A stretch of DNA of 64,000 nucleotides, from NCBI GenBank assembly GCA_048937405.1, contig JBHLNF010000005.1:192001-256000 (forward strand). The letters are read 5' to 3'. Both the position numbers and the translations under genes were made by a program. Positions 31,291 to 36,457 of the stretch are shown in pieces; the stretch's first letter is position 1; every line of letters begins with the position of its first letter. This DNA comes from Promethearchaeota archaeon (GTDB lineage: Archaea > Asgardarchaeota > Lokiarchaeia > Sigyniarchaeales > SOKP01). Below the pieces are notes generated by a model, which was not told the DNA's origin, did no database searches, and saw only the letters and a list, made by a program, of their open reading frames with translations.

Positions 31291-31446
31291 ATGGCAGGAA
31301 TACACCCGAGTTCTCCCTTAGAGTTTTGGGAAGATAGAATAAAACATCTTATCAACAAAAATAAAACGGTACAAAAAAGAAGACTTAGTATTATTAAAGA
31401 CCGAGCAAAATATGCACAAAATGAAAAAAGACAGAATAACAGATAA
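31291..31446 (+). CDS. Small basic hypothetical protein (51 aa, MAGIHPSSPLEFWEDRIKHL...)
   Basis: ATG..TAA ORF below the track cut-off; TATA-like AATATATAA about 20 nt upstream; converges on the next gene. Confidence 0.45.
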   Translation: MAGIHPSSPLEFWEDRIKHLINKNKTVQKRRLSIIKDRAKYAQNEKRQNNR

Positions 31447-31463
31447 TTCTAATCATATTTTTT

Positions 31464-31712
31464 TTATTTTATATATTTTTCTAAGAATTCCTTAATTCTT
31501 TTGAGAAGGAGATTATGGGTCTTTAGATTGTCATATTCTTTTCTATTTAACAGGTCTTCTTCTTTCACTATCATGTGAAGCCCTAAAGTTGCGAAGATGT
31601 GAAATGTAAAACGGTAAAATCCTACAGTATGTACAAACTCTTTTACTTCCTCAAAAATTTGCTGAATGAATTCTTTTTGAGCTTGTTTTACCTCATCGCT
31701 TAACGCAGTCAT
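31464..31712 (-). CDS. Hypothetical protein
   Basis: 82-aa ORF. Confidence 0.6.
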   Translation of the reverse strand: MTALSDEVKQAQKEFIQQIFEEVKEFVHTVGFYRFTFHIFATLGLHMIVKEEDLLNRKEYDNLKTHNLLLKRIKEFLEKYIK

Positions 31713-31928
31713 AATTATATATTAGTTATGAACTCTAAAGCTTAAATAAAAAAAAGAGAGCAGGTTAAGTAATAGAAAGGAATTTCAGAATAAGGTCTCT
31801 AAAAATAGATAAATTACGTTTCAACTCAAACTAATATGAATTGCAAAACTTTAAATTACTTTTCTATTATTTAAAATAATATCAATTGTTTCAAAAATCT
31901 ACAAGAATAAAAGTAGAACTTAATCCGA

Positions 31929-32402
31929 GTGAGGGTACACATGTTCTCTTTTCTAACTAATTTATTTAGATTTAAAAAAATATATTGGATTATTCAAGAA
32001 GGAAGTGGAATACTCCTTTATAAAAAAAATGGGCAGAATTCCATACAGGATAATTATGTTGGAGAGCTTCTTAGTGCATTTTATTCCCTTTCACATTTTA
32101 TTTTCAGAACCGCCCTACAATCCATAAAAATTGATAATTTTAAACTTAACATTATTAGAAGAAGAAAATTATTTTTTGTTTCTATATGCCCAGGCAGAAT
32201 GAAGAGACAAAAAATTGTTCGACGTTTATTCACAATTGCTACCTATTTTTGCTCTTTATATTCAGAAGAGGAAATAGAAAATTGGGACCATAATATAATG
32301 AAATTCCATAATTTCGATAAGGAAGTGAAGATTCATAAAGCTCAAATCATCGGAGATTTTATAAATAAATTATGGACTCATGATGTCGTGACAGTAAATT
32401 AA
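31929..32402 (+). CDS. Stand-alone longin-like domain protein
   Basis: IYWIIQEGSGILLY, GELLSAF, LQSIKID, LFFV and F..LY..I.NW...F.NF pattern of longin/sigma-like folds. Confidence 0.6.
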   Translation: MRVHMFSFLTNLFRFKKIYWIIQEGSGILLYKKNGQNSIQDNYVGELLSAFYSLSHFIFRTALQSIKIDNFKLNIIRRRKLFFVSICPGRMKRQKIVRRLFTIATYFCSLYSEEEIENWDHNIMKFHNFDKEVKIHKAQIIGDFINKLWTHDVVTVN

Positions 32403-32748
32403 ATTCTCTAATTTCATTAATTATTATTATAGATTTTCAGTGATTGTATCTTATATTCTCATAAAATATTCAAAACCCCTTTTGAATATTTTTATCTTCT
32501 TTTACTTTCTTCTGTAAAAGTTTCAGAATATTATCTATTATAACATTGAATTGCTGCTATATCTTTTAAAGCTACTAAAATTTTACTGATAAATATGGAA
32601 AATAATATTTAATTCATTATTTGAACTTAATAAAGACAAACGACTGGAGATTAACAACAAAATTTTTCAAAATTATTTGTCATTTTTTTCATGTGAAAAA
32701 AAAGGAAATTTTTAAATACTAGTTTTTGATGAACATCTAGTGTAAATA

Positions 32749-32891
32749 AAAGATCGGAATATCATGATACTAAAATATATTCTTATACCTAATGCCGTTG
32801 AATCGGCTAAATACCTCAACCCTTAACCCTGTTATTAGATAAATACGTCTCCTCTTTTTGCAATTTTGAATATCATGTTTTCCGACTCTTT
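32749..32891 (+). ncRNA. Candidate structured RNA (fold-back element) enclosing a 20-codon ORF at 32764-32826
   Basis: Interrupted ~24-bp terminal stem, internal GCCG/CGGC hairpin, upstream TTTAAATA box and downstream pyrimidine tract; strand inferred. Confidence 0.45.
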
Positions 32892-33066
32892 CTTTTCCTT
32901 ATTATAATCTATTTCGAGTTCCAATTTTTTTCTTAAACTAAATAATTCATATTAAAATTATTATCCAAGATATTTGAGAAAAAAGAAAAAAATTTATTTT
33001 TTTTAACAGTTAAACCTAAGCAAAAATGGTTATTGTTGATTTTTAAGCCTATTTCATCCAAAATCA

Positions 33067-34608
33067 TTATCTCAAAATTATTTTTTGAAGCTTAATATTT
33101 TTTCGAACAATTTCATCCTCAAATAAAGGATCAGTAAAGGAGATCTGACAAGTAAAGGTAATTGATCCTTCCGATTTAATTGAATAGTGATAAGCTGTTT
33201 CTAATCTTTCATGTAAATCGGAAGATTTAACTTTTTTTTCTTTAAAAATTTGCTCGAGTCTTTTTTTTGGTTTCCATACTAATTCAAATTCAAAATCTTG
33301 GAGCACAAAATTACTTTGATTCTCGATCTCTAATATGAAATCTAACACTTGATTTTCTATTTCATAAATAGTATTAAATTTCAGATATTTGAGTATATAC
33401 TCAGAGATCATATCTGAGACAAAATCATCAAGCCTTAGAATCCCCTCATATATCTCTGGATCTTTAATTAGATTTCCGATGTTTTTTATAACTTCCGTTA
33501 AAGTATAAGGTGTTTCATTAATTTCCTCTGGTTTTAGAATATGGAGTCCAAAGATATATGACAGTAAATAAGTTTTAAATTCTAAAAGTTCCAATTTAAG
33601 CTCTTTTGATAGGTCGTGAGCTCGTGAAAAGATTCGAAAATAGAAGTAATAGTTTCTATCAGATATTCCTTCTGTATAAAATGCAGAAATATCACTTTTT
33701 ATATTAAATATTTCACAGGAGACAATGAATAGCTGAATAACTTCAAGTAAAGATAAAGAAATCCGATATCGATTAAGTAATTTCAGTATATTGCAATAAT
33801 TTTTCAGTAAAACCAATAATTTTTTTTTTTTAGTTATATGAGAAAGGGATGAAAGTGATAACTCTAAGTGTTTTTTTACATTAAATTTTTTATCCTGAAT
33901 CGAAATATCATAAGATTGGAGTTTCAAATTTTTTATTTTTTCTATGAATTTTATATTAAATATGGTACTAAGTAGTAAAGCTAAACCAATTAAAATGTCT
34001 TGGTTATTACTTATTTTTGATATGGTAATTGAAGATGTAAGATAGGAATAAAACCACTCTACAGTTGCTAGATATTCAAGATAATTGTTATTGATTAGTT
34101 CAAGTGGGATATGAAACTCTTTTCTGACTCTCTCACACCCTAATCTTTCAGTTAAATTGAATGAAAGCTCTTTCTTTATTAAAATAGTATAGGGATATTT
34201 GTGATATATTCCTAATGTATTGCTAATATGTTGCTGTATTTTACTGAACTCTCTCTGAATTCTTACTGTATCATCCAGCATATCAGTTCGTTCTTTTTTG
34301 GGAAGTTGATATTTTACAGTGGTTGATTTATCCAGTTTTTTTAGAAATTTCGGAGTTGGTTCATAGTTTCTACCACCTTCTCGTTCTCCATTTCGATTAA
34401 AAAAGTAGATCATCAATGTATCTCCATGGTCAGAGACAACTAAATATACAATTGGTCCAATGGTTCGCATTTGAAACTCAGGAAGTATACCTAAAGAAAA
34501 GACACTTTTACTTTTTATACGTAAGACCTTCACAGATTTAGGTCTCTTTTCTTTATATTCCCAATTGGCAAAATGCACTACTTTTTTAAAGGTGTCTCGC
34601 AGTTCCAT
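33067..34608 (-). CDS. Hypothetical protein with a C-terminal beta-sandwich-like domain
   Basis: 513-aa ORF; C-terminal LEIENQSNFVLQDF..FTCQISFTD alternating beta pattern. Confidence 0.6.
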   Translation of the reverse strand: MELRDTFKKVVHFANWEYKEKRPKSVKVLRIKSKSVFSLGILPEFQMRTIGPIVYLVVSDHGDTLMIYFFNRNGEREGGRNYEPTPKFLKKLDKSTTVKYQLPKKERTDMLDDTVRIQREFSKIQQHISNTLGIYHKYPYTILIKKELSFNLTERLGCERVRKEFHIPLELINNNYLEYLATVEWFYSYLTSSITISKISNNQDILIGLALLLSTIFNIKFIEKIKNLKLQSYDISIQDKKFNVKKHLELSLSSLSHITKKKKLLVLLKNYCNILKLLNRYRISLSLLEVIQLFIVSCEIFNIKSDISAFYTEGISDRNYYFYFRIFSRAHDLSKELKLELLEFKTYLLSYIFGLHILKPEEINETPYTLTEVIKNIGNLIKDPEIYEGILRLDDFVSDMISEYILKYLKFNTIYEIENQVLDFILEIENQSNFVLQDFEFELVWKPKKRLEQIFKEKKVKSSDLHERLETAYHYSIKSEGSITFTCQISFTDPLFEDEIVRKNIKLQKIILR

Positions 34609-36004: not shown

Positions 36005-36457
36005 ATGACGGATGTAAAAAAGCTCCAATTAAGAACCGGTGCAGAAGTAGATTTTGATAAAAAAGCACCAAATACTCTTTTTGAGATGATTATTAGTGAG
36101 ATTTTAATTCCTAAATATAAGGAAAATGCTGATTGGAATTTAAGTTTAAATATTATTATTGAAGAGATGAATTATCTTATAAAAAAATATGACTTAAATC
36201 CCAAATTGAAAATTGGTCTACTAAATGATGTTGAAGAACATTTAGATAAAGATATTGAGGAATTAACAGGTGTAGATAAGATTGAGATTTTGTTTTTAGG
36301 TATGGATGATTATGTTGAAGATATAAGAAAATTAATATTAGCAGGTAAAGATAAAGAAGAACTCCGAACAAGCATGGCTCAATTGATTATGCCATTGACA
36401 ATTTTTGAATTATCAGAGCTTTTTATTTATTTAGGAAAAAGAACTTTTTTAAAATAA
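36005..36457 (+). CDS. Hypothetical acidic helical protein
   Basis: 150-aa ORF. Confidence 0.6.
   Translation: MTDVKKLQLRTGAEVDFDKKAPNTLFEMIISEILIPKYKENADWNLSLNIIIEEMNYLIKKYDLNPKLKIGLLNDVEEHLDKDIEELTGVDKIEILFLGMDDYVEDIRKLILAGKDKEELRTSMAQLIMPLTIFELSELFIYLGKRTFLK

Follow-up and report, generated by a model that had tools for sequence, protein, structure and literature searches.

An intron-prone, family-specific small RNA of Lokiarchaeia whose loop is invariant, predicted from comparative sequence analysis

We suggest that a gap in the genome of a Promethearchaeota archaeon (contig JBHLNF010000005.1) holds the gene for a small structured RNA. The analysed DNA (the window) is a 64-kb stretch of the 4.47-Mb genome, and the gap lies at 32403-33066 (660-bp) between convergent open reading frames (ORFs). 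According to the comparison with related genomes, it almost certainly contains a single-copy gene, on the + strand, for a stable, structured non-coding RNA (ncRNA) of ~155 nt with its own B recognition element (BRE)/TATA promoter and a T-rich end, and we have very little doubt that the gene is one for a spliced, stable, trans-acting structured RNA. As judged from sequence, this uncatalogued, family-specific and intron-prone small RNA with an invariant loop is real. The TATA box, the two arms, the inner hairpin, the pyrimidine tract and the ATG in the stem, all listed in an earlier note on this stretch, were recovered at the same positions (Table 1), and its proposal of a stand-alone transcription unit agrees with the predicted transcription from an own promoter to a pyrimidine-rich end.

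BLAST of the whole gap against relatives detected one conserved segment of ~220 nt (32677-32900), present at 73-96% identity and in one copy each in 22 of the 24 same-genus genomes, while the remainder of the gap was not conserved among them. In the genus alignment the promoter is almost invariant, the terminal stem changes in a compensatory manner, a core of ~85 nt is invariant, and 30-nt GC-rich inserts occur at species-specific places. The window's genome has a single copy by both sequence search and covariance model. Applied to 130 further genomes of the family, the covariance model (R1) recovered the RNA from 106, representing 11 genera, almost always as one match, so the homologues that the earlier note had proposed to look for are numerous; the same model had no match in 19 genomes from the three sister families of the order. 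The loop 19-mer ACCTCAACCCTTAACCCTG, with up to 2 mismatches, was detected in 100 of the 133 genomes searched within the family but in none of the 26 searched from elsewhere in the class, and many of the family genomes without a 19-mer match have an intron within the motif. When five genomes from outside the family were searched next to their HDAC orthologues with all filters removed, nothing significant emerged; a more diverse model (R2) reached only E = 0.08 and 0.68 as its best values in 14 sister-family genomes, and the viral collection had 0 matches to the loop 19-mer. As far as detectable, the RNA gene appears to be restricted to one family of Lokiarchaeia.

One genome of the family (G074) carries two diverged tandem copies, L094:201-354 and L094:677-828, ~475 nt apart. 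In both of them the ATG of the stem is changed to ATA and the opposite arm is changed to match.

The arms of the closing helix (32749-32776 and 32863-32891) form 24 bp in four blocks, and the minimum free energy (MFE) fold adds 3 outer pairs. In the predicted RNA this helix, ~20-25 bp long, clamps the 5' and 3' ends together. By one-sequence folding the + strand reached -25.5 kcal/mol (z = -3.15), a value equalled by none of 200 shuffles, which bears out the fold-back element of the earlier note. The enclosed loop of ~90 nt is G-poor and predicted to be unpaired except for one small variable hairpin; ~70 of its bases are invariant, and a U-rich stretch present in it, AAUUUUGA, differs among species.

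Covariation was counted in the 52-sequence model alignment. There, 89.8% of the cells are paired, versus 37-50% when the partners were slid, and compensatory changes were detected for 24 of 33 pairs (110 cells; 0 of 500 shuffles as high), supporting the structured ncRNA that the earlier note had named among its options. Helix 1 (10 pairs) is 92% paired and helix 2 (9 pairs) 88%, with 18 of these 19 pairs showing compensatory changes. Pairing is weaker in the innermost block, TAAAAT/ATTTTG, at 76%, and a 4-bp hairpin, AGAU/GUCU, is near-constant: three of its pairs are invariant and the fourth changes only from U-G to U-A. In one genus the CAUGAU/AUCAUG helix is swapped for GGAGAAAU/AUUUCUUC, and the variant of this genus also has neither the small hairpin nor the adjoining AUACCU repeat. 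G-U or U-G cells in the paired columns number 152, versus 41 for A-C or C-A.

Two observations limit what folding and covariation show. The - strand folds about as well (z = -3.45), and the covariation alignment was fitted to the model, so it is biased toward structure. Since both strands fold well, thermodynamics confirms the inverted repeat beyond chance and leaves the strand undecided; the same helices were already visible in the independent MAFFT alignment of the genus. The + strand is favoured because the TATA box lies upstream, the 3' end is T-rich, G-U pairs are in excess, and the bulge-helix-bulge (BHB) folds described below form on the + strand only. In the homologue alignments we noticed no sign of a conserved promoter of the TATA type on the - strand. 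The closing stem carries a 3x2 internal loop, for which we rejected a K-turn or BHB reading: it has no tandem G-A pairs and no 4-bp offset, and it is absent in other genera.

An inverted repeat with variable flanks could also be a DNA-level element, either a miniature inverted-repeat transposable element (MITE) or a recombination/attachment site, with the arms as its terminal repeats. Lineage-specific ORFs on both sides of the gap would fit such an element, as would the position of at least 13 of ~107 homologues less than 1 kb from a contig end (a count from model-match coordinates). We give this explanation a negligible probability. The locus is found as one copy per genome at a syntenic site in 11 genera, the arms change in a compensatory and not an identical manner with a G-U asymmetry that indicates RNA pairing, and a promoter and BHB introns are present. 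No target-site duplication was found, the only direct repeats being weak AT-rich pairs. By its copy number, synteny and covariation the locus is not the MITE that the earlier note named as a possible origin of the arms.

The earlier note had read the element as a type I toxin-like or micropeptide mRNA with a locked start codon, and its observation of 5'-3' long-range pairing around the start holds, as the closing helix contains the AUG in most copies. The stem contains the ATG owing to the pairing of CAUG(AU) with (AU)CAUG. This pairing is the likeness to type I toxin mRNAs such as hok and aapA, and the stem ATG is preceded by GGA in 44 of 51 homologues. The peptide part of the claim failed. 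The aligned start position is ATG in 44 of 51 sequences, GTG in one and a non-start codon in six; counted as ATG, the start is lost in 7 of 51. One-base indels just past the ATG place the core in three frames (...YILIPK..., ...NIFLYL..., ...IYSYT*), the ORF varies from 2 to 45 codons, and the peptide changes completely among the homologues. Unlike a coding sequence, the core shows no more change at wobble positions than elsewhere: all of its bases are constant. In addition, the AUG-bearing helix is replaced in one genus, the introns split the ORF region regardless of frame, and the locus is single-copy and syntenic, unlike mobile toxin loci. In contrast to hok and aapA, neither an ORF nor a peptide is conserved in the RNA, and we identified no antisense partner for it. 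We consider it highly improbable that the start codon hidden in the stem belongs to a locked toxin-like or micropeptide mRNA.

The RNA matched no described family, as the earlier note had supposed. A search of 32300-33200 against Rfam with E up to 10 gave chance-level matches only (best E = 1.7), and ARAGORN detected no tRNA or tmRNA at the element and no tRNA anywhere in the window. Signal recognition particle (SRP) RNA and RNase P RNA are both located elsewhere in the genome, and the region has no Rfam match to either of them or to 5S rRNA. A C/D or H/ACA guide RNA was rejected, since the conserved sequence has no such boxes and the sole Rfam snoRNA match (E = 6.9) is on the - strand; a TGATGA does occur at 32728-32733, but it is 5' of the predicted RNA and is not kept in relatives. 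Y RNAs, which are bound in Ro60 ribonucleoproteins (RNPs), are similar in the bulged 5'/3' closing helix, the large pyrimidine-rich internal loop, the U-rich tail and the size of ~100-160 nt. They differ in that the loop, not the stem, is the conserved part here. A Y RNA was rejected: no TROVE/Ro60 gene was detected in the genome by a search in which the positive controls matched, and Rfam gave no Y RNA match.

We detected that the species-specific inserts have the geometry of BHB introns. Each long copy was realigned to the intron-less sequence with boundary ambiguity allowed, which yielded 20 inserts, each 28-33 nt long. They occupy eight positions when numbered along the mature RNA (38, 39, 70, 77, 78, 79, 84 and 88), which in window terms lie after 32785/86, 32817, 32824-26, 32831 and 32835, all in the invariant loop. 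In all 20 inserts, exon-1 bases -6..-3 pair with bases -6..-3 of the intron as a central helix, 3-4 of its 4 pairs being made, a rule that a random insert is expected to meet ~15-25% of the time by our estimate. Every insert has a 3-nt bulge on each strand and an interior hairpin, the 3' bulge starts with AA in 17 of 20 and with CA in 3, and a cut after the second bulge base produces the exact uninterrupted sequence in all of them. The motifs are of a relaxed type because their outer helix is weak: it has 0-3 of 4 pairs, and no more than 2 when the BHB is in its final placement. The inserts fold as splice motifs on the + strand only.

Model matches of full length measure 172-206 nt in ~25 of ~100 cases and 143-159 nt otherwise, suggesting one or two introns in about a quarter of the species; the copy in the window is intron-less. 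The window's genome has two EndA genes (PF01974, 103 and 71 bits), located on contigs C27 (74089-74313) and C8 (5162-5410), and we predict that the splicing endonuclease and a ligase would remove the introns. Asgard tRNA genes are heavily interrupted by BHB-type introns (bioRxiv 10.64898/2026.10.13.758758). The introns of the RNA resemble those of BHB-bearing archaeal genes (tRNA, rRNA and cbf5 pre-mRNA) in the 4-bp central helix, the two 3-nt bulges and the cut after the second base, as well as in their short length (28-33 nt), many positions and repeated gain across lineages; they differ in the relaxed motifs, in splicing being predicted, and in the host, a small RNA that is neither tRNA, rRNA nor mRNA. 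No report of BHB introns in a regulatory small RNA (sRNA) was found in the literature searched. Because the introns are confined to the invariant loop, the contiguous mature loop would be what selection sees, and because excision restores the invariant sequence, the spliced RNA itself would be the functional product.

The promoter of the RNA gene is conserved together with the gene. A TATA-like box lies 29-53 nt (mostly 31-45) 5' of the first stem base in 47 of 52 homologues, and in nearly all of these 47 TATA-aligned promoters it is directly preceded by a module consisting of a T-tract, TCAYRTGA and an A-tract (palindrome TTTTTTTCATGTGAAAAAAAA). The weight matrix built from the 47 promoters was run on the whole genome. 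It scored the RNA promoter at 34.2 and one other genomic site, C7:708159, at 33.1, the only other one to exceed 30, with the next best site at 22.4. This second site (C7:708159-708202, L008:1356-1399) lies 45 nt upstream of a 364-aa gene (L008:1448-2542) with weak matches to GNAT acetyltransferases. A recognisable module is present 5' of GNAT-like orthologues or close paralogues in four further genomes from three genera (G009, G020, G049 and G069; clearest in G009), and its weight-matrix scores are lower or marginal in some of them. The conserved promoter module common to both suggests that the RNA gene and the GNAT-like gene are probably controlled by one transcription factor. The likeness between the GNAT leader and the RNA 5' arm proved to be confined to the promoter, and a pairing of the 3' arm with the GNAT-like mRNA was rejected (rank 1005 of 3568).

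Table 1. Positions of the features of the RNA gene in the window
Feature	Coordinates	Strand	Basis or remark
Upstream promoter element: T-tract, CATGTG, A-tract (palindrome TTTTTTTCA/TGAAAAAAA), then BRE-like GGAAA	32683..32708	+	
TATA box TTTAAATA	32711..32718	+	Sequence; homologue promoters
Predicted RNA, primary and mature, ~155-160 nt	32741..32900	+	Predicted ends; 5' end ~26 nt past the TATA centre
Closing helix, 5' arm AAAGA-TCGGAA-tat-CATGATA-c-TAAAAT	32749..32776	+	Fold, genus alignment, model alignment
20-codon ORF MILKYILIPNAVESAKYLNP	32764..32826	+	ATG at 32764, stop at 32824-32826; judged non-coding, not conserved
Invariant loop segment A AAUAUAUUCUUAUACCUAA, with the first AUACCU	32774..32792	+	(Near-)invariant in 22 same-genus and 52 family-wide sequences
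Small hairpin GCCG-UUGAAU-CGGC, variable loop	32794..32807	+	4/4 pairs covary, 99% of cells paired
Invariant loop segment B AAAUACCUCAACCCUUAACCCUGUUAUUAGAUAAAUACGUCUCCUCUUUUU, with the second AUACCU, tandem AACCCU, and CCUC motifs like the 16S 3' end	32809..32859	+	22 same-genus and 52 family-wide sequences
Closing helix, 3' arm ATTTTG-aa-TATCATG-tt-TTCCGA-c-TCTTT	32863..32891	+	Fold, genus alignment, model alignment
Pyrimidine/T-rich tail, likely archaeal termination signal	32892..32905	+	T-rich run 3' of the arm in essentially all homologues

The function that we tentatively favour, at less than even confidence, is that the RNA acts in trans through its exposed C/U-rich loop. The loop contains ACCU, ACCUC and CUCCUC, the core of the 16S anti-Shine-Dalgarno end, together with the tandem AACCCU; it would pair with purine-rich start regions of mRNAs and alter their translation or stability, and the transcription factor recognising the palindromic element common to the GNAT-like gene would control the synthesis of the RNA. 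The ACCUC and CUCCUCUUUUU stretches of the loop are pyrimidine-rich, predicted to be unpaired and complementary to Shine-Dalgarno (SD) sequences. The 3' end of a same-genus 16S rRNA reads ...GGAUCACCUCC, with CACCUCC as its last bases, and start regions in this genome often read AAAAAGAGGA, the complement of UCCUCUUUUU in the loop.

Two candidate targets have long perfect matches to the loop. The first is a 16-nt match, ATTAGGTATAAGAATA, at C25:150559-150574 (L136:760-775), which abuts the ATG of a gene for a 408-aa secreted protein of the Pfam family AAT (acyl-CoA:6-APA acyltransferase-like). It is complementary to loop segment A and is retained in 2 of 3 same-genus orthologues. The second is an 18-19-nt match, AAGGGTTAAGGGTTGAGGT, over the SD and TTG start of a conserved 152-aa gene without a Pfam family, detected in four species of another genus (L131:296-325, G094; also L129, L130, L132). 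This site is antisense to the invariant C-rich motif and sits in a CATCTGA...TCAGATG hairpin.

Bacterial sRNAs with C-rich loops, for example RsaE/RoxS, form a comparable class. For archaea, loops directed against ribosome-binding sites (RBS) are an established mode of sRNA action, as in sRNA154 and sRNA41 of Methanosarcina mazei (PMC5867862). The RNA is similar to sRNA154 and sRNA41 in being an intergenic gene with its own promoter and terminator, in its stable stem-loop with unpaired, pyrimidine-rich SD-complementary stretches, and in single candidate targets with long matches over the SD and start codon. It differs from them in having no sequence relationship, in ~70 invariant bases that far exceed the usual seed, in the family-wide target that was not found, in bearing BHB introns, and in its presence in one Lokiarchaeial family in the genomes searched.

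Several results weigh against the mRNA pairing hypothesis. The orthologue of the 152-aa gene in this genome (C7:596935) has no AAGGGTTAAGGGTTGAGGT site, and of 10 same-genus genomes sampled no more than 3 carry a close orthologue of the 408-aa gene. Neither candidate target is family-wide, which leaves ~70 bases constant in 11 genera unexplained. RNAduplex comparison of the loop with 3701 crude start regions gave results no better than shuffled or reversed queries, and contiguous matches were not enriched in 3568 start regions when these were compared with gene interiors, antisense strands or shuffles. An ungapped whole-genome scan for partners of three loop segments found nothing beyond the controls and no long antisense partner. 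Such invariance in a predicted transcript is more typical of the RNAs of protein machines than of base-pairing regulators.

A role in an RNP is, by itself, somewhat unlikely and nearly as likely as mRNA pairing. In that case the invariant loop would serve proteins, one or several, as a binding platform, a decoy or a subunit; Sm-like, KH-type and 16S-3'-end-binding factors are examples. Stability would come from the closing helix and U-rich tail, as in Y, 7SK and 6S-type RNAs. That ~70 consecutive loop bases stay constant in 11 genera while the helices drift is consistent with such a role, as are the repeated motifs (AUACCU twice and AACCCU twice), which suit dimeric or multimeric binders, the U-rich AAUUUUGA stretch with the U-rich tail, and the absence of a conserved RNA target from our searches. 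Against it, no candidate protein emerged: the neighbouring genes (HDAC, M24 peptidase, OTCase, TrmB-type, CoiA-like and the 150-aa helical protein) are not known RNA binders, and no Ro60/TROVE gene was detected. Moreover, one genus does without the hairpin and one of the AUACCU copies, and the AAUUUUGA stretch varies between species.

A ribosome-related RNA, which would mimic a 16S segment or act as a chaperone or guide on pre-rRNA or ribosome-assembly factors, is distinctly improbable in our view. The rRNAs of same-order and same-genus genomes (G032, G129) were used because the window's assembly has no rRNA genes and the 16S gene of one same-genus single-contig genome (G023, L035:1390-1640) is mostly masked as N. 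The loop has AAUACGUCUC in common with the 16S neck region (10 nt; 16/20 over a longer stretch) and AUUAGAUA in common with the 790-loop motif, and its CCUC occurs at the 16S 3' end. However, these sense matches are within the shuffled range (mean 8.1-8.6, maximum 11-12), and the 16/20 match is expected ~0.7 times by chance by our estimate. A 17-nt pairing with 5 G-U was found ~110 nt 3' of the same-genus 23S gene, and 3% of shuffles equal it; other complementarity to SSU and LSU rRNA was no better than shuffles. The RNA has no C/D or H/ACA boxes, and rRNA is conserved far beyond the family, whereas the RNA is not. Overall, rRNA, SRP RNA and RNase P RNA were not convincing as pairing partners.

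The invariant single-stranded stretch also contains a tandem 7-nt unit, AACCCUU-AACCCUG, and CAACCCUUAACCCUG could be read as the two-copy template, bounded by the hairpin, of a telomerase-like reverse transcriptase (RT). In its layout the RNA resembles that of ciliate telomerase: its ends are closed by a helix, a hairpin stands on the 5' side of the repeat, and the 3' part and the tail are U-rich. We place very little credence in this reading. Neither this genome nor 133 of the 134 genomes searched in the family gave an (AACCCTT)n array, although these are metagenome-assembled genomes (MAGs) that may under-represent repeats, and the lone match is a degenerate internal TTACCC/TTTACCC array of a different unit in genome G102. 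No RT gene is adjacent to the RNA gene, and the invariance reaches far past the repeat. The G102 array, ~110 nt long, is intergenic on contig C388 (L181:1425-1530); in this genome the RNA was found by neither the model nor the loop 19-mer.

The genomic neighbourhood is a block conserved across genera: OTCase, a 184-aa ORF, HDAC, the RNA, M24 peptidase, a 150-aa ORF and a TrmB-type regulator. One genus has a gene for a CoiA-like nuclease upstream; within the window's genus, one clade has the RNA gene inverted relative to its HDAC and M24 neighbours. No known RNA-binding protein was detected among the neighbours. The ORFs flanking the gap in the window, at 31291-32402 and 33067-34608 (82, 157 and 513 aa), have no significant Pfam family, the 157-aa ORF having a faint longin-domain match (E = 0.06), and they are absent from the corresponding interval of relatives. 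The flanks of the RNA gene seem variable or insertion-prone, because these local ORFs are absent in relatives and homologues of the RNA lie near contig ends as counted above. The 150-aa ORF (36005-36457 in the window) encodes an all-helical protein of no known family; among 20 loci examined across genera, 16 have it downstream of the RNA at a distance of 0-2 genes.

Taken together, the ~70 constant, apparently unpaired bases point to a strongly constrained, family-specific partner, either a set of mRNAs or a protein machine. The palindrome common to two promoters suggests a directly testable two-member regulon, and the covariance model can be used for annotating the RNA gene in new genomes. 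The predicted splicing would extend the BHB mechanism beyond tRNA, rRNA and a few known mRNAs to a small RNA that needs the tRNA-splicing machinery, and the eight independent intron positions within a 50-base stretch of the loop (mature 38-88) may serve as a natural reporter for intron gain and tolerance. The most far-reaching proposal, which we regard as quite unlikely, is that the spliced RNA is the subunit of a lineage-specific RNP machine of Lokiarchaeia, with the loop as guide, template or catalytic-site component for a protein enzyme. If true, the RNA would be comparable to the eukaryotic snRNA, Y and telomerase-class RNAs, and tRNA-type splicing would be an obligatory step of its maturation in many species.

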